In this document: positions 1,624 to 36,885 of the stretch, in pieces
Layout: every line of letters begins with the position of its first letter
Position numbering within the stretch: the first letter of the stretch is position 1
DNA from: Candidatus Beckwithbacteria bacterium
GTDB lineage: Bacteria; Patescibacteriota; Microgenomatia; UBA1400; UBA1449
DNA length: 64,000 nucleotides
Direction of reading: 5' to 3'
Assembly: GCA_012797845.1 (NCBI GenBank)
Contig: JAAZOH010000038.1
Coordinates: 11,919-75,918, forward strand
The notes under the pieces: generated by a model
Told to the model about the DNA's origin: nothing
Seen by the model: the letters and a program-made list of their open reading frames with translations, nothing else
The model's database searches: none
Translations under genes and position numbers: made by a program

Positions 1624-1790
1624 AAAAATGTACTAAGATATACTTATATAGTATCATTTGGTACACTCTGGATGTTGAGGCTAGGGAGAGAATTGCGATC
1701 CGGCAGCCAAGCAGTGCACCCCTAAAGATCGTGATCTCTAATTATTTCTTTAAACTTGTGTAACAGTGATATTGGCGAAGAAAATTTTGA

Positions 1791-2429: not shown

Positions 2430-2433
2430 CCTG

Positions 2434-2775: not shown

Positions 2776-2832
2776 TATGTTACAATTACATTCCCAAAAA
2801 TTACTAAAAATAAACACTTTTTTAAAGGAATT

Positions 2833-3642: not shown

Positions 3643-3883
3643 TATATACCTTCAAGACCAAAAGACTTGTTGGGGTAGTTGCTCAAAAAAGAAGAACCTT
3701 AACTTTAACTGGCGAATTGTTTTACTGCCCGACCATTTGGCTGATTACATTGTCATTCACGAACTGTGTCACCTGAAGGAGTTTAGTCACTCTCGAAGAT
3801 ACCGGAACTTAATGGCAAGTGTGCTGCCTAACTATCAAGAGCTTATCACAGAATTAAAAACCAGTGGTTTATCGTTAGTATAA
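3620..3883 (+). pseudogene. C-terminal fragment of YgjP/DUF45 (M48-like HExxH) metallohydrolase
   Basis: 87-aa ORF containing WRIVLLPDHLADYIVIHELCHLKEFSHS, which matches the HExxH-bearing C-terminus of YgjP-family proteins. The N-terminal ~140 aa of the family are absent. Confidence 0.55.
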
Positions 3884-4080
3884 TCAAGCTGTTAAATAAT
3901 TGAGGTTTTGACTGTAAAGGAACTCACGATAATAAGTTCCCACATAGTCGATCAGTCCAGCCCCCTCAAGGAATACCCTATCAAACTATATCTATAGAAA
4001 GCTGGATTCGAACTGGAAAAGAAAAAATTTGTTTTTCAGACTTATGATACAATTAGACAAGTAATAAATGTAAATTCTAA

Positions 4081-4099
4081 TAGCTGCCAGGTGCAGCTA
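4081..4099. promoter_or_regulatory. palindrome tagctgc-N5-gcagcta upstream of MSNEDL paralog 1
   Basis: 7-bp perfect inverted arms. The same element occurs at 6909-6929 before paralog 2. Confidence 0.5.
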
Positions 4100-4846
4100 T
4101 TTTTTACACTTATGTCAAATGAAGATCTTAGAGGCAAGTTGCGAAAACAAGTAACTGATCATGCTGATTTTTTGTTGGCTGATAAAGAGCAACAAAAAAG
4201 AATTTTACTAGCAGAAGAGCGAAAACGTATCAGACAGATGGTAAAGGAGCATGAACTCATGAAACAACTAGAAGTGGCAGATGTGTTACAGATGCTTGTT
4301 GATATTGCAAATGAGGACTCAATAGATATGCAACCACTTGCTGAGGTAATTCAGGAAGGAAATGTAAAACATTGCGAGAATGGAAGAGTTGAAGTTATTA
4401 CTGGCATGCTGCCAAACCAGGGAACTAGAGTTAAAAAAGGAATATTGGCTGTAATACCGGAATTTAGAACAGAAAAAAATAACCCAACTTTACTATTTGC
4501 TAGAAGATCTCTGGATAGTAAATATGAACTATATTTACCAGAAAATTGCATTGTTTATCAACAAGTTGAATGTTCTAGCTCTGATCAGGTGGGAGAAGTA
4601 GCATTGCAAATGCTTTTACTTGATAAAAGCATGGAAGACTTATATAAAGAATCTTTTGGACGTTTTGCTCTTATTGGCTTTGGTGTTTCCCAATTATCTT
4701 TTAGTAGTAACCTTTTAGACTCAAAGATTTTTAGCCAAATGTCATTATCTCTTTTTGCAACGTTTGGGAAAACTGCCACTAGTGTAGTTAGTCGAATGAG
4801 AAAAAGTAGCCATATCTACGATAGAGCAAAGAACTATTTACTTTAA
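4091..4846 (+). CDS. MSNEDL-family protein, paralog 1 (possible ATP-grasp substrate/partner)
   Basis: ORF track starts at a GTG inside the palindrome. The likely true start is the ATG at 4112 (MSNEDLRGK...). Shares N-terminus and internal motifs (LxxLVxxANxD, LLFARRSLD/LLIARPPKD) with the ORF at 6941. Confidence 0.55.
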   Translation: MQLFFTLMSNEDLRGKLRKQVTDHADFLLADKEQQKRILLAEERKRIRQMVKEHELMKQLEVADVLQMLVDIANEDSIDMQPLAEVIQEGNVKHCENGRVEVITGMLPNQGTRVKKGILAVIPEFRTEKNNPTLLFARRSLDSKYELYLPENCIVYQQVECSSSDQVGEVALQMLLLDKSMEDLYKESFGRFALIGFGVSQLSFSSNLLDSKIFSQMSLSLFATFGKTATSVVSRMRKSSHIYDRAKNYLL

Positions 4847-4939
4847 ATAATTAGAATATAAAATTTTGACATCCCAATTAGTTTAATTATGTAGTTTTTT
4901 ATATCAAAATTAATTTACTCTGTTCAGAAATATTTTTAA

Positions 4940-5956
4940 ATGCAATTTGAAAGAGAATTGAAAACACAAGAAATTGAACCCGGGACAAGTGGTCTTGTTT
5001 TACTTGTCAGTAGGCAGTTTGATCCTCATGTTGATTTTATTATTGAAAAGTTGAGATCAGAAAACATCCAGTTTGCCAGATTTAACACTGAAGATTTTCC
5101 AAGAAATACTTCCGTAAGTTTGTATTTGGGAGATGGCGAGACATCTGGATTATTGGATGTGCCCAACAACTTACCTTTTTTGCTAAACCAAACCAGATCA
5201 ATTTTATACAGGAGACCAGCAGAACCTAATCCACCAGATAATTTAACCAAGGGCTTTGAAGAATTTGTGGTTTCTGAGAGCAAATCAGTTATAAAAGGTT
5301 TATGGTCGTTACCCGATGTTACTTGGGTAAATTACCCGGAAGACAATCGAAGAGCTGCTATCAAACTAGATCAGCTAAGACAGGCCCAAATACTGGGTCT
5401 TTCTATTCCCAAAACTCTAGTCTCCAATAATATTATTGACATTAGATCCTTTTTTGACCTGTGTCATGGAAGCATGATAGTAAAACCTTTAACCGTAGGA
5501 AGTATCGAAGAAGATGGTATATATAAAGCTTTCTATACTAGCAAAGTTGAACCGGAACATTTAGACCAACTTGGCCCGGATAATAGATGTCCTTATGTAT
5601 TTCAAGAAAATATTCCCAAGGAACTAGAATTGAGAATAACTATTGTTGGAAATAGTGTGTTTGCAGCCGAAATCTTTTCTCAAGAACAAGAAGGAGCTGA
5701 GACCGATTGGAGAAAAAAGTGGGAAGGCTTACGCTACGGAATTCATGAGCTTCCCGAGGATATTAAAAATAAATGTTTGAAATTAGCTAGACATTATAAT
5801 CTAAATTTTGGAGCAATAGATATGATAGTAACTCCTAGAGGTGAATATGTTTTTTTAGAAATCAATCCAAATGGTCAATGGGTTTGGATAGAGCTTGAAA
5901 CTGGATTACCAATATCAGAAGCTATGATAAAACTTCTTTCTGAGAATAAGCACTAA
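4940..5956 (+). CDS. ATP-grasp ribosomal peptide maturase (MvdD/MvdC-like, graspetide family)
   Basis: N-terminal pre-ATP-grasp pattern VDFIIEKLRSENIQFARFNTEDFP... and C-terminal GAIDMIVTPRGEYVFLEINPNGQWVWIELETGLPISEAMI, matching the microviridin-type ATP-grasp hallmark. Confidence 0.7.
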   Translation: MQFERELKTQEIEPGTSGLVLLVSRQFDPHVDFIIEKLRSENIQFARFNTEDFPRNTSVSLYLGDGETSGLLDVPNNLPFLLNQTRSILYRRPAEPNPPDNLTKGFEEFVVSESKSVIKGLWSLPDVTWVNYPEDNRRAAIKLDQLRQAQILGLSIPKTLVSNNIIDIRSFFDLCHGSMIVKPLTVGSIEEDGIYKAFYTSKVEPEHLDQLGPDNRCPYVFQENIPKELELRITIVGNSVFAAEIFSQEQEGAETDWRKKWEGLRYGIHELPEDIKNKCLKLARHYNLNFGAIDMIVTPRGEYVFLEINPNGQWVWIELETGLPISEAMIKLLSENKH

Positions 5957-6465
5957 GGTTTATTGAGTTTTTTTACAGTTTTAAATGTTTCTTTTAAAGG
6001 AGAAATATCAAATTTTTTTCGCAAAGAATCAGGAATGATATTTTCATAATTAGAAATAACCCATTTGTCTTTTTTAAGCTCGAATTGTGTTACAAAAAGT
6101 TGTGGCCTGGAAATGCTTAAAAGAAATCTGTCTATGGCTAAGGCCATATAATTTTTACACCAGTCATCTCCTAATACGCTTCCAATAGAATAAAGGGTAA
6201 CAGCCAAAGCATAATCATTATAATTAGAACCGTGATGAAAAAAATGCCCTGCCCGAAAATAATCATCTGCTGTTTTTAGTTCTCCCTTTTTAAGCATTTT
6301 CAAAACTAGGTCTTTTATTTCTACTTCTTCTTGGTAAAGCTTTTTAATCAAATTCTTTTGTTTCTTTAAGTCAAACACATATCTTTTTTTTTGAACCTTT
6401 TCAAATAGTTTAATAAGTTTTTTGTTTGAATTTGGAGATTTATTAAAATAACCCTTTTTTACCAT
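5953..6465 (-). CDS. hypothetical Lys-rich protein
   Basis: 170-aa ORF convergent with the ATP-grasp gene. Confidence 0.4.
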   Translation of the reverse strand: MVKKGYFNKSPNSNKKLIKLFEKVQKKRYVFDLKKQKNLIKKLYQEEVEIKDLVLKMLKKGELKTADDYFRAGHFFHHGSNYNDYALAVTLYSIGSVLGDDWCKNYMALAIDRFLLSISRPQLFVTQFELKKDKWVISNYENIIPDSLRKKFDISPLKETFKTVKKLNKP

Positions 6466-6533
6466 ATAAATAAATTCTTACAACCTTATCTAAAGGTAAT
6501 GCAAGATTTTGATTAAAATATTTTATGTTTCAC

Positions 6534-6725
6534 TTAATCATCTCGACCTTGATCAATTTGTGTGACATCTACGCTGATATGTGTTGGAACAGTACAGATT
6601 GTTCCAGCTGCATTAGCATGTCCCGCAGTCCATGTTTGACTATCAGGATCATATTGTCCTTCAACAGGAGCTAGATCAGCAATTGCAATGTCTTCAGTAA
6701 ACTGGGAAACAAATTCTTTTGACAT
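6534..6725 (-). CDS. small peptide, candidate RiPP (graspetide) precursor
   Basis: 63-aa ORF with a strong SD (AGGAGGTGA) 8 nt upstream of the ATG. Acidic leader-like N-terminus and a Thr/Ser/Asp-rich C-terminal half. Lies ~600 bp from the ATP-grasp maturase. Confidence 0.5.
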   Translation of the reverse strand: MSKEFVSQFTEDIAIADLAPVEGQYDPDSQTWTAGHANAAGTICTVPTHISVDVTQIDQGRDD

Positions 6726-6908
6726 AACTTCTCACCTCCTTGTAAACTTTTGCTTATACTTTCAGTTTTGCATTATGTTTAAAAAATATTTAAAAGTCAA
6801 ATAAACACAAAAAAGGCTGAGCCATGAATAGAGTTCAGTGAGTTAAAAGCGAAAATTAAGGAGAAAAATATGATATAATTCTCCTTATTATATTAATAAT
6901 AAATAGAC

Positions 6909-6929
6909 TAGCTGCCAACTGTGCAGCTA
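6909..6929. promoter_or_regulatory. palindrome tagctgc-N7-gcagcta upstream of MSNEDL paralog 2
   Basis: Same inverted-repeat arms as 4081-4099, followed by a conserved tattttt...ATG..aatgaaga block. Confidence 0.5.
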
Positions 6930-6940
6930 TTTTTGTAAAT

Positions 6941-7663
6941 ATGAGCAATGAAGACTTAAAATGTAAAGCATTGGCTGGTCTAAAAAAAGGCCAACAAGCA
7001 AATTCAACAGTAGAAGAAGCAAAAGAAGCTAAGGCTCGATTTAAAAAAGATCAGTTGAGAAAATTACAAGTTCAAGAAACATTGACTTTTTTAGTTGAAG
7101 CTGCAAACACTGATGATCCTGAATTAGGAGAAATTAGAGAAGCAATGCATGTAAGATTTGGAGAACAAAAATTATCAGTTGAATATAACGAAGACCAGAC
7201 TATTGTATTGTTACAAAATTCTAGTAAAAAGACTGTAATGGCTATTGGTGTAGAAACCTATGGTCGAGATAATAAAAGTAGAGGTTCGTTGTTAATCGCT
7301 AGGCCTCCAAAAGATATCAAAGCAACATTTCGCAGAGACACATCTGAACCAGTATTGTTTATGAGAAAAAAATGTATAGATACGGGCGCTGTTGCGTCAA
7401 GTGTAATGGAATTTATAACTACTGATCAAGTTACTGAAGGTAGATGTCCAAGTGATGTTGGAGAAGATTTTTTGAGTAAATACCCTGGTTTGAGCTATGA
7501 TTACGCTGTTTTTGAAGAAATGTATGAGTTAGCATATCCCGATACTGATTCAGCTCCAAAATTAAATATATCATATAGTTATACAAATGATCTTCCTATG
7601 CATGTAGGCTGTAATAGCTATGTTCAATGGATGTTTGGAAAATATTTCGCAAATCGAGCTTAG
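6941..7663 (+). CDS. MSNEDL-family protein, paralog 2
   Basis: 240-aa ORF starting MSNEDLKCK. Distant paralog of 4112-4846. Confidence 0.55.
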   Translation: MSNEDLKCKALAGLKKGQQANSTVEEAKEAKARFKKDQLRKLQVQETLTFLVEAANTDDPELGEIREAMHVRFGEQKLSVEYNEDQTIVLLQNSSKKTVMAIGVETYGRDNKSRGSLLIARPPKDIKATFRRDTSEPVLFMRKKCIDTGAVASSVMEFITTDQVTEGRCPSDVGEDFLSKYPGLSYDYAVFEEMYELAYPDTDSAPKLNISYSYTNDLPMHVGCNSYVQWMFGKYFANRA

Positions 7664-7902
7664 TATAAACATTAAATTTTTGTATCAAAGTAATCTCCTT
7701 TTGCATTTATTCATATAATCTTAATAGTGTAACAAAATAAAAAAACATGAACCAAGAGACTGTATTTATTTTTAATACAAGCTTATTTTGGTAAAAAAAT
7801 TTAACTAATTAAGTATTGAGCCAAATAAAAAGTTCTGACATAGTCCACTAGTGCCAGCAGCCACGTATAATCTTGAGAGATTGACCGTACTCTCTAGTTA
7901 CT

Positions 7903-8421
7903 ATGAATGAAGCTACTGTTTCGATTTTTACAACCTTAACCATATTATTAATCGTAGGATTTGTAATCAAATTATTCTTAAGACTTGTTTTTCAAAAATT
8001 TCCAAGAACATCCAAGTCAATACATACTTATTTGTATAAAACTAGAAGTTTTTTTCTAACCAAGCCAGAGCATGAGCTTTTTGATATTTTAGTAAAAAAC
8101 TTTGGAGATACATATTATATTTTCCCCCAAGTCCATCTATCTTCAATTTTTAACCATAAAATTAAAGGTCAAAACTGGCAAAGTGCTCTTAATCATATAG
8201 ATAGAAAATCTATCGATTTTCTGTTTTGTGATAAAGCTTATATTAAACCAATCTTAGCTATTGAACTTGATGATTCTAGTCATCAAAGGGAAGATAGAAT
8301 TATTCGAGATAGTGAAGTTGAACAGAATTTTGAAAATGCAAACTTACCCTTATTACGGTTTAATAGCCAGGAAAGATTTCACAACGAAGAAATGTTTGAG
8401 AAAATTAGAGAAAAACTTTAA
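7903..8421 (+). CDS. DUF2726 domain protein (PD-(D/E)xK-like nuclease fold) with N-terminal TM
   Basis: SIDFLFCDKAYIKPILAIELDDSSH...LPLLRF pattern typical of DUF2726. Confidence 0.5.
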   Translation: MNEATVSIFTTLTILLIVGFVIKLFLRLVFQKFPRTSKSIHTYLYKTRSFFLTKPEHELFDILVKNFGDTYYIFPQVHLSSIFNHKIKGQNWQSALNHIDRKSIDFLFCDKAYIKPILAIELDDSSHQREDRIIRDSEVEQNFENANLPLLRFNSQERFHNEEMFEKIREKL

Positions 8422-8543
8422 TTTACAATAATCCTCTTCCACTTCAAAAGAAAAAAATCTCGAAAATAAAATTATTAGTTTGATTATTCTATTTTTATAA
8501 ATTTTCTTCTTTTGGTATAATCTCAGTGGATGAATACATATAA

Positions 8544-8996
8544 ATCTTCTCATAAGGTTTTTGTCTAAAGCAGACATCATTTCGATGTCTGAATTGTCGT
8601 GCCATCATTTCCAATACCTGTTTAGGAAGCAAACACCGCAACCATTGTCCAATATGTTTATGGTCTAGACATCTCGATCTTACTATTCCTGGTGATAGAA
8701 AGTCTCGTTGTGGCTCAAAAATGAAACCAATAGGATTAGTATTTAAACATATTACCTATAATCCATTTACTGATAAGACAAGTGGTGAACTGATGATAGT
8801 ACATCTATGTCTAAACTGTGACAAAATCTCGACAAATAGAATTGCCGGAGATGATAATGCTCAAAGTATTATTCAACTACTAGATGAGCCAAAATCGCTA
8901 GATCCTACTTTAATTCATAGATTACATTGTTCAAACCTTACCCCACTTACCCGTCAAGATGAGCAACAAGTCTTGGCTTGTTTATTTGGTTATTGA
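8544..8996 (+). CDS. RNHCP domain protein; N-terminal part lacks a canonical start codon
   Basis: First ATG is at 8721. The in-frame upstream translation (no stop back to 8544) reads FRCLNC...ANHCPICLWSRHLD, which matches the RNHCP motif, but contains no ATG/GTG/TTG. Confidence 0.5.
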
Positions 8997-9055
8997 GGTT
9001 TTTTTATTGATTAATAAACTCAATATTATTTACAATTTTATTGTAAAATAGCTCT

Positions 9056-9715
9056 GTGAATTTTTTCTTGAAAAGCTTTCTATTTTTACTCCTGGGTTCT
9101 TTTTTATCTGTTTTAGTATTTATTTTGCTAAATAATGATATTTTTAGTGCAACCTTTGTTTTTGAAGGTAATAAAGAGCAATATCAGATAACAGATTTTT
9201 CTTTGGAGGATGCTCCAGCCGAATCATTGCGCGGAACTATTGCCAGTAGAAATGGGGAAATTTTGTGGCAATCCAGAATTGCTACACAGTCTTCAGTATT
9301 AGTAGGCGACAAAATACTTCAACAGGGAGAAATTTTAGAAACTGGGAAAGACGGAATAATTGAAGTCAAATTTGTTGATGCTGCCTTAGTTCATATGTTT
9401 GAGAATACTAAGGTTGAAATCGTTCAGACTTTGCCAGTCAATTTAGTTTTCAATCAATCTAGGGGTACAGTTACATATAAAAATTTGGGAGAAGCTCCGG
9501 TTTCGATTCGATCTATCAATCTGTTGGTAAATTTGACAAAAGGTTTGATAGATATTGATGTGGACGATCAAACGGGAGAAGTAAGCTTATCTTTAGTTGA
9601 AGGCAAGGCCAGGGTAGCATATAACAGTACGGATTTTGAAAGTAAGGTTTGGGATTTGGAAGCAGGAGACAGTTTTTTATATGACAGCAATGAAAGAGAA
9701 GGTTTTTTTGAATAA
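9056..9715 (+). CDS. membrane-anchored FecR-like domain protein (copy 1)
   Basis: GTG start, N-terminal TM, beta-rich FecR-like pattern. ~78% aa identity to 18478-19137. Confidence 0.55.
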   Translation: MNFFLKSFLFLLLGSFLSVLVFILLNNDIFSATFVFEGNKEQYQITDFSLEDAPAESLRGTIASRNGEILWQSRIATQSSVLVGDKILQQGEILETGKDGIIEVKFVDAALVHMFENTKVEIVQTLPVNLVFNQSRGTVTYKNLGEAPVSIRSINLLVNLTKGLIDIDVDDQTGEVSLSLVEGKARVAYNSTDFESKVWDLEAGDSFLYDSNEREGFFE

Positions 9716-10849
9716 TTACTTATAAGTTTTGACAGGTTCCAAGATAGTTTGTCCCTCATAACCAAGTGCCCAAAAAGCCATACCACCAAGCTTATATTTT
9801 TTAACAAGATCAATTTTTTCTTGCACGGCTTGAGCATCTGGATAAAAAATCTGGTGATAGGTTTTATACTCTTGATCGTAATAAATAAGGTATGATTCTT
9901 GAGAATTAGCCTCTATTTGCGCGCTGCAACTGGCACAACTAGCCAAAAATTCCTCTACCCTTTTATTACTAGCTGTAATGCCTGAGCCAGGCAAGGTGGC
10001 AGATCTAGGATAGTCAGTCAGGGTTTCCCATTCATAGCCGTATAAAGGAATGCCAAGAATAATTTTATTTTTAGGTAAAACCTCTAGTGCTTTTTGAATA
10101 CCGGTTTCAACATCAAACTCACTATCAATTCCGACTCCACCTACTGGTGCTACTGCTCCACTCACTTGTGAGCCAGGATAATGGTAATCATAAGTCATGA
10201 GGACAATATAGTCGACATACGGTTCAACTGCTTCAAGATTGATCAGTCTGCTTTTGATCAGATCTGTAGGACTGGCATCAATGGTCAGGGTTGTATTAAT
10301 CCGACTTTTGACTTCTTTAATAAAAGCAGTGAAATGTAGTCGGGCTGATTCTGAAGCATATAACACATTTTCGATATCAAGATTAAGATCAGTAAATCCA
10401 TATTGTTCCATGATTGGGTTAATCTGTGAAACTAAAGTTGCGGCGTGAGAAGCAGGTTCAGAGACTAATTCATTGATAGTATCTGGATCACCACTAAAAA
10501 TTAAAAGGGAGTTTTGTAAATTTTTGGAAGGAGTAAATTTCCCAGAATTTAGAGCTTGCCAGCCCGGTTCAGCTTCTCCTGGATTGGTATATTTTTGAAT
10601 CTTACCATCTCCTTCAACAGTCAGTCCAAAATAAGTAATATTGGTCAAATATTGGGAATAGTCTTTGTCAGTTTTACCTATAAACCAATATGGAAGAAAA
10701 CCGATAATATGTTGCTTATTTTGTTTTTGAAGAGGAGAAAGAATAATTGATTTGGGATTTTTATCAACGAGGTAATTTAATAAAAGCAACGTAAAGGTAA
10801 ATCCTAAAATCGTTACGAAGAAAAAAACCAGAATACTTTTTATTTTCAT
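9716..10849 (-). CDS. glycoside hydrolase family 18-like protein, membrane anchored (copy 1)
   Basis: N-terminal TM; DLNLDIE (DxxDxDxE-like), MTYDYHY and GGMAFWALGYE motifs of GH18. Confidence 0.6.
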   Translation of the reverse strand: MKIKSILVFFFVTILGFTFTLLLLNYLVDKNPKSIILSPLQKQNKQHIIGFLPYWFIGKTDKDYSQYLTNITYFGLTVEGDGKIQKYTNPGEAEPGWQALNSGKFTPSKNLQNSLLIFSGDPDTINELVSEPASHAATLVSQINPIMEQYGFTDLNLDIENVLYASESARLHFTAFIKEVKSRINTTLTIDASPTDLIKSRLINLEAVEPYVDYIVLMTYDYHYPGSQVSGAVAPVGGVGIDSEFDVETGIQKALEVLPKNKIILGIPLYGYEWETLTDYPRSATLPGSGITASNKRVEEFLASCASCSAQIEANSQESYLIYYDQEYKTYHQIFYPDAQAVQEKIDLVKKYKLGGMAFWALGYEGQTILEPVKTYK

Positions 10850-10946
10850 CTATTTTATTTTAACATGGCCACCTTTAGAAACTGTTTAATATAAAGTATC
10901 AGGAGAGTATTTAGAAAAATATTACAGTACTTATTAAACTCAAAAT

Positions 10947-11750
10947 TTATTTTAATCTTCTGAACATTGCATATACCCGACCATGATCTTTGGAAAATGT
11001 TAAAGTGATTGCATAATTATTTTCTTCCCACCTTAAGCAGTTGTTTTCATCAATACTAAAACTTAAGTTGTCTGCATACTTTTCTTTATAGTCTTGGATA
11101 AATTTATCCATATTTGCTTTATCTACCGTCCAATATTGAGTATATTCAATCTCTCCGCCATTTTGATTGAGTTTACCGTAACTATTTTCATGTTCCTGCC
11201 AGCTAGGATCAATTTCGATTATATTGGGATAATCAGCATAATATTTGTTAGTTTTAGTAAATTCTTTTTCTGGTACATAGACTTGTAAATAAGAAGTGCC
11301 ATCACCGTAATCAGATACTGAAACAATATATGATCCAATAGTCCCCTCTACCCTAGAATCGCTTGAAGTGTCTTCATTTGCTTCGTTCATTAAAGATCGG
11401 TAATAGTTAAGAAGCTCAATCTGTTCAGCTGCCGAAGCAAAAACCACATTGTAATAGTTTTTTTGAGTGGGTAAAAAAGTTTCTATATTTACAGGATCAT
11501 CATTGACGAAATATTTAATTGATTCAATTCTCTTGCTTTTATATAAGGGAACTAAATTTTGGGGATAACCATCCAATAAACTAGTCATAAAATCATCAGA
11601 TTTATTAGCCGATATTTGTTTGGAAGTATTTTGAGTTTGAGTTTTTTGATCAAAATTGTTTTTTGAATAAGGATGTGTGTTTAAAAATATTAAAGTTCCT
11701 ACTCCAAGGATTAATAAAAATACTATGACAATAATAAATTTTGATTTCAT
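10947..11750 (-). CDS. hypothetical secreted protein
   Basis: N-terminal signal/TM. A fragment homologous to its 3' end lies at 22395-22535. Confidence 0.45.
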   Translation of the reverse strand: MKSKFIIVIVFLLILGVGTLIFLNTHPYSKNNFDQKTQTQNTSKQISANKSDDFMTSLLDGYPQNLVPLYKSKRIESIKYFVNDDPVNIETFLPTQKNYYNVVFASAAEQIELLNYYRSLMNEANEDTSSDSRVEGTIGSYIVSVSDYGDGTSYLQVYVPEKEFTKTNKYYADYPNIIEIDPSWQEHENSYGKLNQNGGEIEYTQYWTVDKANMDKFIQDYKEKYADNLSFSIDENNCLRWEENNYAITLTFSKDHGRVYAMFRRLK

Positions 11751-11900
11751 AATATAAAAATATTAATAAGTAAAGTTTAAAAATTGTAACACTACTTTTT
11801 CCAATTTGTCTATGTATTCTCTGCAAAAAACATGATACAAGGGTGAAATTTTAAAATACCTGGTACAATATCGCCATAAATCAGTAATTTCAGTAAAAGT

Positions 11901-12992
11901 ATGGCTAAATCAGATAATTCCTTAATCCATATCCATGAAGTGGTTAAAACCTATGAAACCGAGGCCGGAGATTTTACAGCCCTTAATAAAATTAATCTTT
12001 CGGTTGGTAAAAGCGAATTTGTCGGAATTATTGGCAAATCCGGGAGTGGTAAATCAACTTTGATCAACATGTTGACAGGGATTGACCGCTCGACAGCTGG
12101 CCAAATTGTCATCAATGGGACTGATATTACTAAACTTGATGAAGGCCAAATGGCGGTTTGGCGAGGCAAAAATATGGGGATTGTGTTCCAGTTTTTCCAA
12201 CTCTTACCTACGCTTACCGTTATTGAAAACATCATGTTGCCAATGGATTTTTGTAATGTTTATAAGCCAAATCAACGCAGCCAAAAAGCTTTGGAGTTGT
12301 TAGGGCAAGTTGATTTGGCAGACCAAGCTCATAAATTCCCCAGCCAACTATCAGGTGGACAGCAGCAGCGGATTGCTATTGCTCGAGCTTTAGCCAATGA
12401 CCCGCCGATTATTTGTGCCGATGAACCAACCGGCAACTTAGATTCTAAAACAGCTGAACAAATTTTTGGTCTGTTTCAGTCTTTAGTTGATAGTGGCAAA
12501 ACTATCGTTATGGTGACTCACGATAAAGATCTAGCTAAAAAAGTCAGTCGGACGATTTTAATTGCTGATGGCCAAGTGATTGAAGAATACCTAATGAGCA
12601 CTTTTTCCTCTCTAGCTCCTGCCAAATTAGCCTGGGTGACTGAGCAAGTCGAAACTGCTGAATTTGCACCAGGCAAGCTGATTGTCAAAGAAGGTGAGGT
12701 TATGAATTATTTTTATGTGATTATGAATGGTATGGTTGAGATTGTAATTTCTAAAAATAAAAAAGAAAAAATCTTAGGAACCTTTGGGCGAGGTAAATAT
12801 TTTGGAGAAATAGAGCTATTTCATGATACTAAAAGTATAGCTTCAGCTCGAGCTGGCAAAAAAGGTGTCCGGATTGGCCGGATTAAAAAAGATGTTTTTA
12901 ATCAAATTGTGCATGAAACCCCGGTTTTGGGAAAGAAACTTCGTAACTTAGCTAGTAAACATTGGGAAGAAAATAAAACTGCTAGAAAGTAA
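11901..12992 (+). CDS. ABC transporter ATP-binding protein (MacB/LolD-like) fused to a C-terminal cyclic nucleotide-binding domain
   Basis: Walker [10 protein letters not shown], signature [15 protein letters not shown], Walker B. C-terminal [10 protein letters not shown]...ARA pattern typical of cNMP-binding domains. Confidence 0.7.
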
Positions 12993-12994
12993 TT

Positions 12995-15376
12995 ATGAAT
13001 CCTCGATGGAACAAAGTTTGGCGTGATTTGTGGGCCAACAAAAGTCGGACTATTGTTGTGGTTTTAGCTATTGCTGTAGGAGTTATGGCTTTTTCTTCAG
13101 TTTTTATTACCAGAGCTGTGTTACTCAAAGACATGAACACTCAATACACAGCTATTAATCCTTCCAGTGTAATTTTACGTTTTCGGGATGGTTTTGAGCC
13201 TGATTTGGTCAACTGGATCGAAACTCAAAAAGGAGTTAAAGCAGCTCGGGCCACTGGTGGGACTTTGGTGCGGATCTTTACTCCTCAAGGTGCTAGAAAT
13301 GTGGAATTAATTGCCCTAAATGATTATGACAAAATTTTAGTGAATCAAGTTACTCCAGAAACTGGGTCTTGGCCACCCCAACGTAAAGAACTAATTTTTG
13401 AGCGGCGTTCGGCTTTAGCTCTCCCCTACCAGTTGGGTGATGATATCGAAATTGAAACGCCAAAAGGCCGGCAAAAAACCTTAAACTTTGCTGGAACAGT
13501 TCATGATTTACGAGCTATACCAGCTAATCTGTTTCCTCAGTTTACGGCTTATGTTTCTTTTGACACGATCCGCTATTTGGATGAAAGTGATGTCCTTACC
13601 AGTCTGGAAATCCAAACTGACGATACAATTAAAACTAAAGACAAAGCTTTAGCTTTAGGGAATCAGCTTAAAAAAGACTTAGAAAATCGAGGTTTTGAGC
13701 ATATCAGTGTTAGAGCTGAAGATCCCAACAAACATTGGAGTCAGGATGTAACCAGTGCTTTTGTGATGATTCTGACTATTATCGGAGCTTTTTCCTTAGT
13801 GTTATCTTTGTTTTTAGTTTTCAACACAGTTTCAGCTATTGTAGTTCAGCAAAAAAAACAGATTGGCATTATGAAAGCCATTGGAGCTAAACGGCTCCAA
13901 ATTAGTATTTTATTTTTAGCTATGGCTTTAAGCTACGGTTTCCTATCGCTTTTAGTAGCCATTCCAGTTGGAGCCTTGTTGGGTTATGGAAGCTTAGCCA
14001 TGGTAACAAATTTTTTAAATTTGGAAATTTTAGATTTTCATATTCCGCCAATGGTACTAGCTATGGAAACAGGTATTGCTTTAGTAGTACCGGTTATTGC
14101 TGCTTTAATTCCTATTATTCAAGGTACTAAGATTACCGTTCGAGAAGCTATCAGTGATTATGTGGTAGCTAAACAGCAAAAATCCTGGCTTAATTCTTTA
14201 TTAACCGAACTGACGATGTTGTCGAGGCCAATGGCAGTTTCATTACGTAATACCTTCCGGCAAAAAGGCCGACTGATTCTAACGTTGGTAACTTTAACAA
14301 TAGCCGGAACACTCTTTGTCAGTGTAATTGGAGTGCGCAGCTCTATGGTTGTTGAGCTCAATAATATTTTGGAACTGAATAACTATGACATGGAACTGTA
14401 TTTTGATGGGACGTATGATAGCCAAAAAGTCACTACTGATACTCAAAAAGTTGAAGGCGTAGCAGAAGCTTATACTCCACTAAATATTTCCGGTGAGTGG
14501 CAAAAAAATAGTGGCTCAGAAAGTGATCAAAAGGAATTCATCCCGATTCAAGGATATATACCCAACTCTCAGTTTTCACTGGTTACTATTACCAGGGGCC
14601 GGAATTTACAACGCAGCGACAGTAACCAAATTATTATTTCCAATAAATTTTTGCGAGATGATCCAAGCATAGAAGTAGGTAAAACGCTAACCTTTACTAT
14701 TAATGACAAAGATTATGATTTTGAAATTGTCGGTGTGTACCTGCTAGCTGATACTAAAATGGTTTTGGTAAACAGCAATTATTTGCGCAAAATCGTGCCA
14801 GATGCTGATCAAGCTAGTAGTGTTCAGATCAAAACTACCAAGCATGATTCAGCCTTTTTGATAAGTTTTGCTAAGACTGTCGAAGAAAGCATGAAACGAC
14901 GGGGTTATGATGTGGCTTATTCTCTAACGATTGACAGTATTCGCAGCGCTTCTGCCGGTCAATTTGATTTTCTGGTGGGATTTTTGATGATGATGGCGGC
15001 TTTAGTAGCGGTAGTTGGTGGCCTCGGCTTAGCTGGCACCATGTCTTTAAATGTTTTAGAGCGAACTAGAGAAATTGGAGTAATGCGCTCAATTGGTGCT
15101 TCAAACAGCTCGGTGTTTAGATTGGTTATTGTGGAGAGTTTAAGCATCGGTTTTATTAGTTGGTTGATCGCAGTGCCTTTATCAGTGCCTGTAGGATTAG
15201 GTTTTTGTTATGCTTTGGGAACAGCTTTTTTTGAAGAAGTTTTACCATATGTTTTTTCACCAGTTGGTATGCTTATCTGGTTAGTGTTGGTTATTGTGAT
15301 TGCTGTTTTGGCTAGTATAGCTCCTGCTAAAAAAGCAGTTAGCCTAACTGTCAGAGACACTTTATCATACGAATAA
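12995..15376 (+). CDS. ABC transporter permease, FtsX/MacB-like (two FtsX modules)
   Basis: 793 aa with two TM clusters and a large extracytoplasmic domain. Translationally coupled to the upstream ATPase. Confidence 0.65.
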   Translation: MNPRWNKVWRDLWANKSRTIVVVLAIAVGVMAFSSVFITRAVLLKDMNTQYTAINPSSVILRFRDGFEPDLVNWIETQKGVKAARATGGTLVRIFTPQGARNVELIALNDYDKILVNQVTPETGSWPPQRKELIFERRSALALPYQLGDDIEIETPKGRQKTLNFAGTVHDLRAIPANLFPQFTAYVSFDTIRYLDESDVLTSLEIQTDDTIKTKDKALALGNQLKKDLENRGFEHISVRAEDPNKHWSQDVTSAFVMILTIIGAFSLVLSLFLVFNTVSAIVVQQKKQIGIMKAIGAKRLQISILFLAMALSYGFLSLLVAIPVGALLGYGSLAMVTNFLNLEILDFHIPPMVLAMETGIALVVPVIAALIPIIQGTKITVREAISDYVVAKQQKSWLNSLLTELTMLSRPMAVSLRNTFRQKGRLILTLVTLTIAGTLFVSVIGVRSSMVVELNNILELNNYDMELYFDGTYDSQKVTTDTQKVEGVAEAYTPLNISGEWQKNSGSESDQKEFIPIQGYIPNSQFSLVTITRGRNLQRSDSNQIIISNKFLRDDPSIEVGKTLTFTINDKDYDFEIVGVYLLADTKMVLVNSNYLRKIVPDADQASSVQIKTTKHDSAFLISFAKTVEESMKRRGYDVAYSLTIDSIRSASAGQFDFLVGFLMMMAALVAVVGGLGLAGTMSLNVLERTREIGVMRSIGASNSSVFRLVIVESLSIGFISWLIAVPLSVPVGLGFCYALGTAFFEEVLPYVFSPVGMLIWLVLVIVIAVLASIAPAKKAVSLTVRDTLSYE

Positions 15377-15418
15377 AACTTTTTTGAAATATCTGGTAAA
15401 ATACAGCCTGTATAAACT

Positions 15419-16486
15419 ATGAATAAGATTTTTGCTTGGTTTTGGAACCATAAATTTAGATCCATCATTCTTCTCCTGATTATTGGAGCGGTTATTTTTT
15501 ACGTGATCAAAAAAAACCAACCACCCAAAGTTGAAACAGCTACAGTTAGCAAAGGTGAGATTACCAGCATTATTGAAGCTTCTGGTCAAGTCATGGCCCA
15601 AGAAACTGCGGATTTAACATTTAGTGCTACTGGTAAAATTGCCTGGGTTGGAGTTAAAAAAGGTGACCAGATTAGTAGGTGGCAAGCTTTAGCTAGCTTG
15701 GATCAGCGGGAACTGCAGAAACAACTTAAAAAAGCTTTGCTTACCCAGCAAACAACTCGGAATAATTTTGAAAATACCATTGTTGATTATGATTACGGAA
15801 TTAGCTCAGTCAATAATTATGATATTCAAACTAGAGGCGATGAAGACTTGGTGATCAAGCGGCTACTTATAAATAATCAAATTTCTTTAGATAGTGCAAC
15901 GCTGGATGTAGAAATAGCCGATTTAGCCAGAGACTATGCTACTTTGATTAGTCCCATTTCAGGTACTGTAGTCAATGATGGTAGTCTAAAACCCGGGCAG
16001 TGGTTAACAGCTGCCAATCTTAGCAGTAAAGCAATTCGGATTACTGACCTTTCAACGCTTTATTTTCAGGCTAATATTGATGAAGCTGATTATGCCAATA
16101 TCCAAATTGGCCAAGCAGTTATCATTACCTTAGATAGTTTTCCTGACAAAAAAATAAATGGCACAGTGACTTTTATTGGCAAAGAAGGTGTCAAAAAAAC
16201 TGGTGGTAGTGTCCAAATTCCCATTGATATTGCTATGACTAATGCTCCCTTAGGAGTAGTAACTGAACTGAATGGGGATGTAAATGTAATTTTACAGAAA
16301 AAAAATAATGTCTTGAAACTTGATAAAACGTTTGTTCACAAAGAGGATGACAAGTACAGTGTCAATATTTTAGATAATAATAAAGTCATTTCTAGGCCAG
16401 TCAAAATCGGTCTTATCGGTCCGGATAATTACGAGATTATAAGCGGTTTAGCTGAGGGTGACCAAGTAGTCAATGTGGTGAAATAG
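15419..16486 (+). CDS. HlyD-family periplasmic adaptor (MacA-like)
   Basis: N-terminal TM, coiled-coil segment, beta-barrel C-terminus. Confidence 0.6.
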   Translation: MNKIFAWFWNHKFRSIILLLIIGAVIFYVIKKNQPPKVETATVSKGEITSIIEASGQVMAQETADLTFSATGKIAWVGVKKGDQISRWQALASLDQRELQKQLKKALLTQQTTRNNFENTIVDYDYGISSVNNYDIQTRGDEDLVIKRLLINNQISLDSATLDVEIADLARDYATLISPISGTVVNDGSLKPGQWLTAANLSSKAIRITDLSTLYFQANIDEADYANIQIGQAVIITLDSFPDKKINGTVTFIGKEGVKKTGGSVQIPIDIAMTNAPLGVVTELNGDVNVILQKKNNVLKLDKTFVHKEDDKYSVNILDNNKVISRPVKIGLIGPDNYEIISGLAEGDQVVNVVK

Positions 16487-16556
16487 AAAAATACTAATAC
16501 CTTTATACTCTAGCTATACTTTCAATTTTCCATTCAATCTGCCATGATATATTGGC

Positions 16557-17615
16557 ATGTCAGACAATTTTTTAATCCTTGGATGGTATGGTTTTGCCCA
16601 TTTTCTGGTAGATGCTGCTTGTGCTGGTTTAGTATACTCTCTTTCTATCGGTTCCCAGTTTGCAGGTTTAAATTTTTTCTTCCTGATTGTTCTATACAAT
16701 GTGTTTGCATTTGGTTTTCAGCCACTTATTGGTTTTATTGTTGATAGCTATCGACTACCTCGTTTTTCTGCAATCATTGGCTATGGTTTGATTGTAATCA
16801 GTCTTTTAGTAGCTAGTCTTCTACCAACACTCTCATTTTTCTTAGCCGGTTTTGGCAATGCCTTTTTCCATGTTGGTGGAGGAATTGTCAGCCTAAGTAT
16901 AAACCCAGGCAAAGCAACAGCTCCTGGTTTGTTTGTAGCTCCCGGAGCACTAGGTTTATTTATTGGCATGATAGCAGGTAAATCAAACACCTCTTTGTTC
17001 TACTGGGTTGTTTTACTGCTGTTGGCTGGTGTGACAACGCTGTTATTACCTGCTCCCAAAACTATTTATAACTATATTAAAAAGGTAGCTAAAATCCGCT
17101 ACGGGACCATTATAATTTTACTTTTACTTGCTTCTATTTCGGTTCGGGCACTGGTGGGTATGGCTGTATTTTTTCCCTGGAAAAGCAACATACTTTTATT
17201 GGCAATTTTGACTTTGGCAGCCGGAAGCGGCAAAGGTATGGGTGGCATTGTGGCTGACAAATTGGGTTGGGTAAAAACCAGTGTGGGTGCTTTAGTACTT
17301 TCAATACCCTTTTTATACCTGGGTGCTGCTTATCCCCTTTTAGGTATTGCCGGTATGCTTTTGTTTCAGATGACTATGCCCGTTACACTGGTAGCTTTAG
17401 CAATGCTGCTGCCAGGCAGTCCCGGTTTTACCTTTGGTTTGACAACCTTAGCCTTGTTGCTAGGAGCTTTGCCGGTTATGTTTGCCTATCACGGATTTTT
17501 CACCCAGCCAATTATCAATAGTCTTACCATTGTGGGTTCAGCCGCCATACTATTTGTAAGTTTGCGATTGTTTTTTAAAACAGCAGCATCAAAACAGCTA
17601 GTTGTTCACGAATAA
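16557..17615 (+). CDS. polytopic membrane protein
   Basis: Gly/Ala-rich TM helices. Confidence 0.4.
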   Translation: MSDNFLILGWYGFAHFLVDAACAGLVYSLSIGSQFAGLNFFFLIVLYNVFAFGFQPLIGFIVDSYRLPRFSAIIGYGLIVISLLVASLLPTLSFFLAGFGNAFFHVGGGIVSLSINPGKATAPGLFVAPGALGLFIGMIAGKSNTSLFYWVVLLLLAGVTTLLLPAPKTIYNYIKKVAKIRYGTIIILLLLASISVRALVGMAVFFPWKSNILLLAILTLAAGSGKGMGGIVADKLGWVKTSVGALVLSIPFLYLGAAYPLLGIAGMLLFQMTMPVTLVALAMLLPGSPGFTFGLTTLALLLGALPVMFAYHGFFTQPIINSLTIVGSAAILFVSLRLFFKTAASKQLVVHE

Positions 17616-17904
17616 ATCACAATCTATACTAAAAATAGCACTGCTGCCTATGATAAAACCTAAACTGTATATACCCATTTTTCTATTTCTGGTTTTAGGA
17701 TCATTAGTTAAACCAGTTTTTGCCTTAGCCGACCTAATTTCTCCTGGAGAATCAATTTATCGCAACGATCTTTTTAATGGGCAAAGCGGAAATTACGAAA
17801 TTAGCACTGAAGGCTATCTTATTGGTGCTGTTGTAGCTACTGTTGTTACTATTTCATTCATTTTGCTTCTTAAGATCAGATATAAACAATCAAAGAAAAA
17901 ATGA
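17602..17904 (+). CDS. small membrane protein
   Basis: Two hydrophobic segments; overlaps neighbours in operon fashion. Confidence 0.35.
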   Translation: MFTNKSQSILKIALLPMIKPKLYIPIFLFLVLGSLVKPVFALADLISPGESIYRNDLFNGQSGNYEISTEGYLIGAVVATVVTISFILLLKIRYKQSKKK

Positions 17905-18278
17905 CGTCTTTATTTCTTTACTTTCTAACTCTGACTCTAACTATCGTTATAGAAATTTTAGTTGGTGGCACAATGCTTGGCTGGAAAAATAAGTTATTTT
18001 TAACTAGCATTGTTTTGGTCAATCTGATTACCCACCCCCTGCTCAATTACATTCTCTATCTCGATACATACTTGGGATTTTTGGGATCAAGATTTTTTGC
18101 TACAGTCATGCTTGAAGCTTTGGTAGTACTTGTGGAATGGCGGTTACTTGTTTTTGCCATGAGATCATTTTCAGTGCAATTATTTAAATTATCTCTTATT
18201 ATGAATGTTATGTCATATCTTTTGGGATCCTACTTTTTAGTTATATTTGCCATGATCTATAACGTGGTTGTCTTCTAG
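17901..18278 (+). CDS. membrane protein
   Basis: 4 predicted TM helices. Confidence 0.35.
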   Translation: MTSLFLYFLTLTLTIVIEILVGGTMLGWKNKLFLTSIVLVNLITHPLLNYILYLDTYLGFLGSRFFATVMLEALVVLVEWRLLVFAMRSFSVQLFKLSLIMNVMSYLLGSYFLVIFAMIYNVVVF

Positions 18279-18477
18279 AGTATTTATGACCTTTGATCAG
18301 CTCATGCTTTTATTGTTATTGTTCCTATGCAAAAACTCTTCATTGTCTTCTCTTAATATCGACCTGTTCTCGAGTTATTAAGTTTTAGATTGTCTGTGAA
18401 AATAATAATATTTTTAGAGATATTTTCATTAATTAACAAGCTCAATATTATTTATTATTATATTGTAAAATAGCCTT

Positions 18478-19137
18478 GTGAATTTTTTCCTAAAAGGCTT
18501 TCTATTTTTACTATTAGGTTCTTTTCTCTCAGTTTTAGTATTTATCTTACTAAATAATAATATTTTCAGTAAAACCTTTGTTTTTGAAGGCAATAAGCAG
18601 CAATATCAGCCAACAAACTTTTCTTTGGAAGATGCTCCAGTAGAATCGCTGCGAGGGACTATTGCCACTAGAAGCGGAGAGATTTTGTGGCAATCCAGAG
18701 TTGCGACAGAGTCTTCAACATTAGTTGATGACATACAGTTTCAGCAGGGAGAAATGGTAGAAACCAAGAAAAATGGGACAATTGAAGTCAAATTTACCGA
18801 TGCCGCACAGGTTGATATATTTGAAAATACTAAGGTTGAAATAGTCCAAACCTTACCGGTCAATTTGGTTTTTAACCAGTTCAAAGGCAAAGCTCAATAT
18901 AAAAATTTAGGAGTAGCTCCAGTTTCAGTCAGGTCTATGAATCTGTTGGTAAATTTAGTTGAAGGTTTAATGGACATCGATGTGGACGATCAAACTGGAG
19001 AAATCACTGTAACTTTAGATGAAGGACAAGCCAAAGTAGCGTATAACAGTGCAGAGTTTGAAAGTCAGATTTGGGATTTGGAAACAGGAGATATATTTAT
19101 CTATGACAGCAATGAAAGACAAGGTTTTTTTGAGTAA
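18478..19137 (+). CDS. membrane-anchored FecR-like domain protein (copy 2)
   Basis: Paralog of 9056-9715; GTG start. Confidence 0.55.
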   Translation: MNFFLKGFLFLLLGSFLSVLVFILLNNNIFSKTFVFEGNKQQYQPTNFSLEDAPVESLRGTIATRSGEILWQSRVATESSTLVDDIQFQQGEMVETKKNGTIEVKFTDAAQVDIFENTKVEIVQTLPVNLVFNQFKGKAQYKNLGVAPVSVRSMNLLVNLVEGLMDIDVDDQTGEITVTLDEGQAKVAYNSAEFESQIWDLETGDIFIYDSNERQGFFE

Positions 19138-20271
19138 TTACTTATAATTTTTAACCGGTTCTAAAATAGTATTTCCTTCATAGCCAAGGGCCCAGAAGGC
19201 CATACCACCCAGCTTATATTTTTCAACAAGATCAATTTTTTCTTGGATAGCTTGAGCATCCGGATAAAAAATTTGGTGATAGGTTTTATATGCTTGGTCA
19301 TAATAAATAAGGTATGATTCTTGGGAATTAGCTTCTATCTGGGCACTACAAGTGGCGCAACTGGCCAAAAACTCCTCTACCCTTTCATTACTAGCTGTGA
19401 TGCCTGAACTAGGAATGGTGGCTGATCTAGGATAGTCAGTTAGGGTTTCCCATTCATAACCATATAAAGGAATGCCAAGGATAATTTTATTTTTGGGGAT
19501 AACTTCTAGCGCTTTTTGGATACCAGTTTCAACATCAAACTCACTATCAATTCCAACTCCACCTACTGGGGCTACGGCGCCACTTACTTGTGAGCCAGGG
19601 TAATGATAATCATAAGTCATGAGGACAATATAATCGACATACGGTTCTACTGTTTCAAGATTGATCAGCCTACTTTTGATTAAATCTGTAGGGCTGGCAT
19701 CAATAGTTAGGGTTGTATTAATCCGACTTTTAAACTCTTTGACAAAGGCAGTGAAATTTAATCGAGCCGATTCTGAAGCATAAAAAACATTTTCAATATC
19801 AAGATTTAGATCAGTAAATCCATACTGTTTCATAATTGGATTAATTTCAGAAGCTAAAGTTGCAGCATGAGAAGCTGGCTCGGAAACTAATTCGTTAATA
19901 ACGTCCGGATCACCGCTAAAAATTAAAAGGGAGTTTTGTAGATTTTTGGAAGGAGTAAATTTACCGGAATTTAGAGCATGCCAACCCGGCTCAGCTTCAC
20001 CGGGATTAGTATATTTTTGAATACTACCATCAGAATTAACAGTTAATCCAAAATAAGTAATATTGGTCAAATACTCTCTATAATCTTTGTCAGTTTTATC
20101 AAGGAGCCAGTATGGTAGAAAACCAATAATATGCTGGGTGTTTTGTTTTTGAAGAGGTGAAAGAATAACTGATTGAGGATTTTTATCAACGAGATAATTG
20201 ACTAAAAAGAAAGTAATGGCAAATCCTACAATAGTTATAAAGGTAAAGATCAGGATGTTTTTTATATTCAC
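19138..20271 (-). CDS. glycoside hydrolase family 18-like protein (copy 2)
   Basis: Paralog of 9716-10849 with the same GH18 motifs. Confidence 0.6.
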   Translation of the reverse strand: MNIKNILIFTFITIVGFAITFFLVNYLVDKNPQSVILSPLQKQNTQHIIGFLPYWLLDKTDKDYREYLTNITYFGLTVNSDGSIQKYTNPGEAEPGWHALNSGKFTPSKNLQNSLLIFSGDPDVINELVSEPASHAATLASEINPIMKQYGFTDLNLDIENVFYASESARLNFTAFVKEFKSRINTTLTIDASPTDLIKSRLINLETVEPYVDYIVLMTYDYHYPGSQVSGAVAPVGGVGIDSEFDVETGIQKALEVIPKNKIILGIPLYGYEWETLTDYPRSATIPSSGITASNERVEEFLASCATCSAQIEANSQESYLIYYDQAYKTYHQIFYPDAQAIQEKIDLVEKYKLGGMAFWALGYEGNTILEPVKNYK

Positions 20272-20616
20272 CCACTCATTTTAACATGGCCTTTTTAAAA
20301 AGATATTAAATTTGGAACTTTTAAAGTTAAACATTAAAAACCCTTTTTGAGATATATGAAAATTATTCTTATGAAACAAATGCCGCAAATTCTAATGAGC
20401 AAAAAGGCCAGGGGGATTAAACTTTGTTTTAATAAGAATAGCTGGTTATAGCGATTATAACTAGAAAAATGGAAATTATAACTTTATGTAAAGATAATAA
20501 CGATATCTTATAAAGACTAAGAAGCCAATAATTTTTGGTTTAAAAAACTAACCCTAAAAATACAAATTCGGATGTAGCTACTTATTTAAGAATGGATAAA
20601 AATTCAGCTGCCATTT

Positions 20617-22170: not shown

Positions 22171-22394
22171 TTTTTCTACGATTTAATCAAGTTCATATTT
22201 AGATAAAATTTGGGCAATTTCTTGCAGTCTTTCAAAATGATCTTTTATGAGTGATTTTTCAAGCATACTTTAAGTATACTATGTTTGAGAATATATTGAA
22301 CATTAGCAAAAATAACTCTTTTAAAATAGATGGAGCCAACTCTTTTTCCTTACAGATATTCCCCTACAAAATTAGGAGCTTTTGCATTTATTGT

Positions 22395-22535
22395 GACCTT
22401 CTGATCATGACATATACTCGGCCATGATCTTTGGCAAAAGAAAGAGAGATATCGTATCCTGCTTCGGTCCAATGCAAACCGCCTAACTCATCAGTACTAA
22501 AATTATCTTTATCACTATACTTTTTTGATAGCTTT
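22395..22535 (-). pseudogene. 3'-terminal remnant of a paralog of the 10947-11750 gene
   Basis: Nucleotide similarity to 10950-11090. Encodes ...SFAKDHGRVYVMIRR versus ...TFSKDHGRVYAMFRR. Confidence 0.5.
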
Positions 22536-36783: not shown

Positions 36784-36825
36784 TCTGTTCCCGCTTTGGG
36801 GCCAACTGTAAACATAAAAGCTAAA
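36781..36825. repeat. imperfect direct repeat (copy A) of the purA 3' end
   Basis: tagtctgttcccgctttgg plus similar downstream sequence; matches 38476-38520. Confidence 0.7.
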
Positions 36826-36885
36826 TATTTATGGTTAAAAATCATACTATTTGCTACTATTAATGCAAATATAAAATTATGATTT

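Follow-up and report, generated by a model that had tools for sequence, protein, structure and literature searches.

Why does a streamlined genome keep two copies of a gene pair that its relatives carry once, and has the exporter lying between the copies anything to do with it? The question is raised by a 64-kb stretch of DNA (64,000 nt of contig JAAZOH010000038.1, here called the window) whose source record is a metagenome-assembled genome of Candidatus Beckwithbacteria (Microgenomates, in the candidate phyla radiation (CPR)/Patescibacteria). Two directly repeated segments of the window each encode a membrane-anchored protein with a predicted FecR-type fold (the partner; A1 and A2 in the two copies) and, convergent with it, a membrane-anchored hydrolase of glycoside hydrolase family 18 (GH18; B1 and B2). 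The arrangement probably goes back to an old segmental duplication, specific to this lineage, of a conserved envelope module of two genes; the ABC exporter between the copies would be an unrelated passenger.

Self-BLASTN of the window aligns 8995-10870 with 18417-20291, collinearly and in direct orientation, at 83.4% identity over 1876 columns with a single 1-nt gap (E=0). This is the sole long repeat of the window; a separate repeat search also picks up its first 300 nt. The first-pass annotation of this DNA had placed the segments at 9010-10875 and 18428-20290 with ~85% identity, which is essentially right, and the extended collinearity on which it had staked its proposal beforehand is present in the self-comparison. 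Identity varies little along the repeat (0.73-0.93 per 60 nt), and both borders are tight, one of them 61 nt upstream of A, the other 21 nt upstream of B; beyond them, the flanks of the two copies share no further homology except for a gene remnant that is considered below. The stop codons of A and B abut as TAA/TTA in both copies. The proteins are 77% (168/218, partner) and 89% (335/376, GH18) identical, close to the ~78% and ~88% estimated earlier, and an open reading frame (ORF) check finds no frameshift or internal stop in A1, A2, B1 or B2. (The start of A1 in the NCBI annotation is 4 codons downstream of the GTG used here.)

Nei-Gojobori estimates are dN 0.13, dS 0.85 and omega 0.153 for the partner, and dN 0.062, dS 0.68 and omega 0.091 for GH18; third codon positions account for 72 of 132 and 117 of 164 changes, respectively. 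With dS at ~0.7-0.85, the duplication is old. Both copies are under strong purifying selection and have been selectively maintained, as the first-pass annotation had supposed from their intactness (omega 0.15 for A and 0.09 for B). Tajima-type relative-rate tests with 10-12 outgroups give no consistent signal of asymmetric divergence between the copies.

Boundary alignments also reveal AT-rich, -10-like boxes conserved inside the repeat borders. That these may be promoters is our own reading only, and the consensus scan is at chance level: promoter and terminator consensus scans of the window yield no excess over shuffled expectation (17 vs 15.6 and 27 vs 19.1, respectively), and the latter finds no terminator at the convergent A/B junctions. 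Over the whole window, with crude ORF calls, a Shine-Dalgarno-like motif precedes only 8 of 65 ORFs, and a TAnnnT-type box is found 5-12 nt upstream of many starts, including those of all four genes of the duplicated pairs. Together, the scarcity of the one and the frequency of the other suggest leaderless or Shine-Dalgarno-independent initiation in this genome.

A conserved hydrolase-partner module

The assignment of B1 and B2 to GH18, made in the first-pass annotation, is borne out by the Pfam profile PF00704 (Glyco_hydro_18), which matches at 108.8 bits against a cut-off of 29.6, residues 50-364 covering positions 4-316 of the 317 in the profile; the two proteins have the same precomputed Pfam entry. 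Glyco_hydro_18 is the only domain matched by Pfam (LysM is absent), and the N-terminus reads as a hydrophobic membrane anchor. The best match of B2 among solved structures is YdhD of Bacillus subtilis (3cz8, 5e-21), followed by YaaH (4s3k) and a cortical-lytic enzyme (4s3j). The catalytic motif is F-T-D-L-N-L-D-I-E, with its Asp-x-Glu present in both copies; all of 30 family members have N156, D158 and E160, and the MxYD and C-terminal Trp signatures are invariant as well. Because of this invariance, the enzyme is probably active. It can be thought of as a membrane-tethered glycosidase that would cleave glycan strands of the cell's own peptidoglycan outside the membrane, and peptidoglycan is most probably its substrate, judging by its nearest relatives. 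A "GH18 family peptidoglycan hydrolase" is listed in a paper on a Microgenomates genome (PMC7143001). A spore cortex hydrolase of the SleL/YaaH type was considered and rejected, since the combination of LysM with GH18 in a sporulating host is not found here.

The partner was originally described as FecR-like, a description that holds at the level of fold and fails at the level of sequence profile. The Pfam FecR profile (PF04773) scores A1 at 16.9 bits, below its cut-off of 24, and does not match A2; weak matches to it are found in 10 of 46 partner homologues (E<=0.01, best 6e-5). An AlphaFold (AF2) model of A2 built with 46 homologues (pLDDT 90.4) has a transmembrane (TM) helix spanning residues 2-26, which a disordered linker joins to an all-beta domain (residues 60-218). 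Foldseek matches this domain to a putative anti-sigma factor (4m0h, E=2e-6) and to PupR (6ovk, chain R, E=1e-4), both with probability 1.0, at TM-scores of 0.48-0.50 over ~131 aligned residues. On this model, the ectodomain is predicted to have the FecR/PupR sensor fold. The protein is nevertheless not a FecR-type anti-sigma factor: its TM helix begins at residue 2, which leaves no cytoplasmic anti-sigma domain, and its gene has no sigma factor close by. Sigma-factor domains are absent from the neighbours of the pair, in the window as well as in related loci, and neither an extracytoplasmic function (ECF) sigma factor nor a TonB-dependent transducer is found near the pair in either. When PDB sequences are searched with a profile of the partner family, only a non-significant match is returned (5ix9, E=0.3). 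As a separate observation, residues 54-125 of the partner (18637-18852 and 9215-9430 in the window) give three weak, independent signals to the "retention module" of LapA/MpIBP: NCBIfam NF033682 at E=0.004, the PDB profile match to 5ix9 just mentioned, and a Foldseek match to 5ix9 at E=0.06 (TMt 0.68).

The association of the two genes extends far beyond this genome. Of 87 related GH18 loci that were collected, 82 have enough sequence past the GH18 stop codon to be evaluated, and the partner adjoins GH18 in 81 of these. The genes are convergent in 79 evaluable loci, co-directional in 2, and split by a 4.1-kb insertion in 1. (The exceptions are L046 10001-11726, L053 5695-7436 and L011 5563-11605; the partner is downstream of GH18 on the same strand in two of these genomes, and the insertion of ~4.1 kb is in the other.) The median stop-to-stop distance is 0 nt, with 3' ends that overlap by <=35 nt in 32 loci and are 0-20 nt apart in 28. 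The loci span Beckwith-, Roizman-, Levy-, Gottesman-, Davies-, Woese- and Shapirobacteria. Genes that neighbour the pair vary among these relatives, and defence genes and recombinases are frequent among them.

A comparison of copy number with related genomes, which the first-pass annotation had called for, finds the pair only once in each relative surveyed. None of the related loci has a second GH18 gene within +-10 kb, and the best 80 genome hits fall in 80 different species-representative assemblies, closed chromosomes of ~1 Mb included, with one locus in each. Being single in each locus and single in each of these 80 genomes, the pair is a core-like, single-copy module of Microgenomates, and its presence in two copies is peculiar to this Beckwithbacteria lineage. 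The literature searched contains no description of a GH18/FecR-like pair, only the passing mention of a GH18 peptidoglycan hydrolase cited above.

Conserved adjacency suggests that the FecR-fold protein, tethered to the membrane like the hydrolase, most probably binds or regulates GH18. A more elaborate proposal is tentative, and rather doubtful in its full extent: the two would form an undescribed wall-remodelling pair common to Microgenomates, in which the FecR-fold ectodomain binds and gates GH18 at the cell surface, the obligatory tail-to-tail order of the genes, often with overlap, couples their expression through convergent transcription, and duplication has created two co-diverged, possibly orthogonal, pairs of enzyme and regulator. 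The strictly conserved convergent pair is, in any event, a candidate for wall remodelling in uncultured Microgenomates, and the most interesting outcome of this analysis.

Origin of the second copy

What was copied can be gauged from the DNA beyond copy 2. Adjacent to copy 1 is a gene for a 267-residue protein (p267), and a decayed fragment of a p267 paralogue is found past copy 2 (Table 1), indicating that the copied segment was once larger and comprised at least A, B and p267. The fragment is 66% identical to p267 in nucleotide sequence, about what is expected, on an estimate from dS, of a pseudogene as old as the pair. A segment with at least the partner, GH18 and p267 would thus have been copied ~9.4 kb away. 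The likely route, and the simplest history, is that the ~9.4-11.4 kb unit was duplicated whole and in tandem and then lost redundant genes by deletion; p267 would have survived at copy 1 and UbiB at copy 2, with only the hydrolase/partner pair persisting at both. Each pair would have been retained because it adds to fitness, through dosage or through diverged specificity. Paralogues are scarce in streamlined genomes of ~1 Mb. As an evolutionary event, an old paralogous duplication is nothing out of the ordinary, although it is somewhat unusual to meet one in a streamlined CPR genome. These genomes are highly reduced, and a retained second copy of an envelope module that is normally single suggests that additional or more diverse wall-hydrolase capacity has been selected for.

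Several points weigh against this account. The position of UbiB, past copy 2 and before the p267 remnant, takes an extra insertion or deletion of 2.0 kb to explain. Duplication within the genome and acquisition of a copy from a close Beckwithbacterium are indistinguishable, close relatives being unsampled. Copy number was surveyed by peptide-pattern scans with a top-80 cut-off. With regard to function, peptidoglycan is the putative substrate by similarity to the nearest relatives, but chitinases also match B2, at ~1e-13, ranking below YdhD, YaaH and SleL; interaction between partner and hydrolase is proposed from conserved adjacency, and convergent genes are not co-transcribed. Finally, short MacB-type operons occur near the pair in 8 of 84 related loci (described below), and a loose link to this class of transporter is conceivable.

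The alternative that survives best makes the second copy a xenologue: a related Beckwithbacterium would have donated, by horizontal transfer, a partner-GH18-(UbiB)-p267 segment that was inserted ~9 kb away from the copy already there. The dS of ~0.7-0.85 would amount to divergence at the species or genus level, the borders of the pair in relatives are variable, defence-rich regions with recombinases (L089-L091), and UbiB has no counterpart at copy 1. However, the copies are mutually nearest by a wide margin: GH18 is 89% identical between them and <=64% identical to the next database match, the partner 77% and <=50%. The partner-GH18-p267 order is common to both copies, the GC content at third codon positions (GC3) of both is typical of the window, and no integrase or transposase is found at the borders. 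Direct orientation at a distance of 9.4 kb is, moreover, a classic signature of local duplication. Transfer from a relative is, on this evidence, unlikely, and local duplication is preferred.

The interval between the copies

The ~7.5 kb bracketed by the repeats (Table 1) encodes a three-gene exporter in which the MacB/LolD-type ATPase carries a cyclic nucleotide-binding (cNMP-binding) domain, as originally annotated. The accompanying claim of three small membrane proteins is only partly right: one of these (TM352) is a polytopic protein of 352 residues, and the minus-strand ORF of p267 had been omitted. No match to p267, TM352, p100 or p125 was returned by PADLOC, by Pfam at loose thresholds or by NCBIfam, and a single-sequence AF2 model of p267 is unusable (pLDDT 48.8).

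Table 1. Features of the duplicated segments, the interval between them and the region adjoining copy 2 (window coordinates)
Feature	Position	Strand	Basis and remarks
Repeat copy 1	8995..10870 (1876 nt)	none	Self-BLASTN, boundary alignments; from 61 nt upstream of A1 GTG to 21 nt upstream of B1 start codon
Repeat copy 2	18417..20291 (1875 nt)	none	Self-BLASTN; junctions confirmed by contigs L099 and L008
A1, 219-aa FecR-fold partner, GYA49_04575	9056..9715	+	GTG start; N-terminal TM helix and extracytoplasmic all-beta domain (predicted)
B1, 377-aa membrane-anchored GH18 hydrolase, GYA49_04580, YdhD/SleL-like clade	9716..10849	-	ATG start; Pfam E=5.5e-31
A2, 219-aa FecR-fold partner, GYA49_04620	18478..19137	+	GTG start; 77% identity to A1
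B2, 377-aa GH18 hydrolase, GYA49_04625	19138..20271	-	GTG start; 89% identity to B1
p267, 267-aa membrane-anchored protein, no family match	10947..11750	-	ORF call
MacB/LolD-type ABC ATPase with C-terminal cNMP-binding domain, 363 aa	11901..12992	+	Pfam ABC_tran 5e-38, cNMP_binding 9e-19; NCBIfam
793-aa permease, two FtsX domains and MacB_PCD extracytoplasmic core	12995..15376	+	Pfam, NCBIfam; orthologues of 45-54% identity in L092-L095
HlyD/MFP-family adaptor, 355 aa	15419..16486	+	Pfam, NCBIfam
TM352, 352-aa polytopic membrane protein, no family match	16557..17615	+	Not beside exporter in other organisms
Small membrane protein (p100)	17650..17904	+	84 aa in ENA/Logan records; 100 aa from TTG at 17602
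p125, 125-aa four-helix-like membrane protein, no family match	17901..18278	+	ORF call
UbiB/ABC1-family kinase-like protein, 517 aa	20617..22170	-	NCBIfam TIGR01982 E=8e-124; between copy 2 and p267 remnant, no counterpart at copy 1
p267 paralogue, pseudogene remnant	22386..22531	-	Last ~45 codons, 56% aa identity, E=2e-10; in-frame stops before it

The first-pass annotation also suggested that the hydrolase pairs and the cyclic nucleotide-gated exporter might form one functional unit, with the exporter exerting, for example, an FtsEX-like control over surface hydrolases or serving in their export. FtsX-family ABC systems do control cell-wall hydrolases in other bacteria (FtsEX-EnvC, PcsB, CwlO), and the genes are physically close in the window. 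In addition, 8 of 84 related loci (L001 2069-5184, L016, L037, L038, L064, L079, L081, L082) have, 5-8 kb from the pair, a short MacB-type operon composed of an HlyD adaptor, a 220-aa ATPase without the cNMP domain and a ~400-aa FtsX permease; the ATPase is 41-45% identical to that of the window, and we regard the proximity as background synteny.

Against this stands the distribution of the two modules. The three-gene exporter order recurs in five unrelated metagenomic contigs (L092-L095 and L098, the last holding only part of the ATPase), with ATPases 52-66% identical over their full length, cNMP domain included, and many full-length representatives of the ATPase-cNMP fusion exist in a 50%-cluster library. 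None of these five contigs contains GH18, the partner, p267, TM352, p100 or p125. Counted over all related loci, the cassette of cNMP-ATPase and 793-aa permease is found beside 0 of 87 GH18 genes, and GH18, the partner and the small membrane proteins beside 0 of 7 exporters; the pair is conserved alone across the whole group, and in the window the pairs are not co-oriented with the exporter operon. Since the exporter stands alone elsewhere, as a three-gene operon without the GH18 pair, the proposal of a functional unit is not supported and must be considered improbable. The exporter forms a module of its own whose place in the duplicated interval is fortuitous, and functional coupling to the pairs is unlikely. 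A compositional test for its horizontal transfer is negative (GC3 0.31-0.33, less than 1 SD from the window mean, 0.277 +- 0.061).

It had further been suggested that the direct repeats could mediate excision or amplification of the exporter module. Their orientation, their length of 1.9 kb and their position on either side of a 7.5-kb segment are what such a role would call for. Homologous recombination, however, drops steeply as sequences diverge and depends on perfectly matched stretches of roughly 25-30 nt. Divergence between the copies is 16.6%, and the longest exact runs between them (29, 27, 26 and 25 nt) sit at this minimal processing segment and match chance expectation (~31 nt at this divergence, by our calculation). 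With no exact run longer than 29 nt, as chance predicts, the repeats are probably poor substrates. There is no gene-conversion tract or other sign of past homogenisation between the copies, and Pfam scans find no transposase, integrase or recombinase domain between 6.9 and 25.4 kb. All assemblies of the sequencing run have the same arrangement, and exact-protein look-ups returned the reference arrangement only, from that one run. The repeats thus appear too diverged for efficient recombination; excision or amplification today is unlikely, and an active role of this kind is given very little credence, although rare recombination events may still occur. A composite transposon or other repeat-flanked mobile cassette was considered as well and rejected, there being no mobile-element genes, and the repeats being coding genes of 83% identity and not insertion sequence (IS) elements.

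Assembly contigs that match the window at 100% identity cover all four repeat/unique junctions between them: the Logan contigs L007 (8214-12253), L099 (15920-18509) and L008 (18480-25754), and the ENA MEGAHIT contig L100 (10617-32170). A fusion of loci from two co-occurring related strains into one contig, which is conceivable for a metagenome-assembled genome when every assembly stems from a single read set (ERR1876141), is hardly credible, because exact words common to the copies reach 29 nt at most, shorter than the k=31 assumed for Logan or the k=127 indicated by the "k127" tag in the ENA contig name, so that mis-joining in a k-mer graph is ruled out, and because each junction lies inside an independently built contig and the unique flanks of the two copies differ on both sides. 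The arrangement is not an assembly artefact.

The rest of the window offers some separate observations. The region to the left of copy 1 (871-8996) looks accessory, with genes for a NERD nuclease-domain protein (871-1623), a DUF2726 protein (7903-8421) and an RNHCP-domain protein (8721-8996); an MvdD-like ATP-grasp enzyme, of a type typical of graspetide/microviridin peptide clusters, is also encoded there (4940-5956). Between a NUDIX gene and the adenylosuccinate synthetase gene lies a 523-aa ORF (36886-38457, plus strand) that has no Pfam match and whose GC content is only 23% (window mean 35%). Imperfect direct repeats of 65 nt (36754-36818 and 38449-38512, 80% identical) flank the ORF, and 36754-38512 may be an inserted cassette. 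Self-BLAST also detects a near-perfect (94%) 35-nt palindrome at 51306-51340. Scans of the window for Rfam families and tRNAs gave no match.

Comparison with known systems

The exporter resembles tripartite ABC exporters of the MacAB/YknXYZ type, which likewise encode a LolD/MacB-like ATPase, an FtsX permease with a MacB core and an HlyD adaptor in one operon. It differs in the C-terminal cNMP-binding domain of its ATPase and in its permease, a fused double-FtsX protein of 793 residues. This cNMP/double-FtsX variant is a pre-existing family that is elsewhere unlinked to the hydrolase/partner pair. The partner has the ectodomain beta fold and single-pass topology of the FecR/PupR anti-sigma regulators (6ovk, 4m0h, PF04773); unlike them, it has no cytoplasmic anti-sigma domain, falls below the Pfam cut-off, and belongs to a host that is presumably monoderm.

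Among proteins of solved structure, the GH18 protein is most similar to the GH18 enzymes of Bacillus spore peptidoglycan, YdhD, YaaH and SleL (3cz8, 4s3k, 4s3j), with ~316 residues aligned. The catalytic D-x-E pair, MxYD and the C-terminal W are common to all of them, and it resembles these enzymes too in lacking the first two aspartates of the chitinase DxxDxDxE motif. Unlike them, it has an N-terminal membrane anchor and no LysM, its gene is always paired with a FecR-fold gene, and its host is a non-sporulating member of the CPR; identity is only ~25-30%.

The duplication itself is comparable with paralogous segmental duplications that have been retained in other bacteria. These, too, are direct repeats a few kb apart with both copies under purifying selection and with reciprocal loss of neighbours, of which p267 at copy 1 and UbiB at copy 2 would be an instance. 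What sets the present case apart is that it is found in a streamlined genome of ~1 Mb, and that the module that has been doubled is single-copy in all 80 surveyed relatives.

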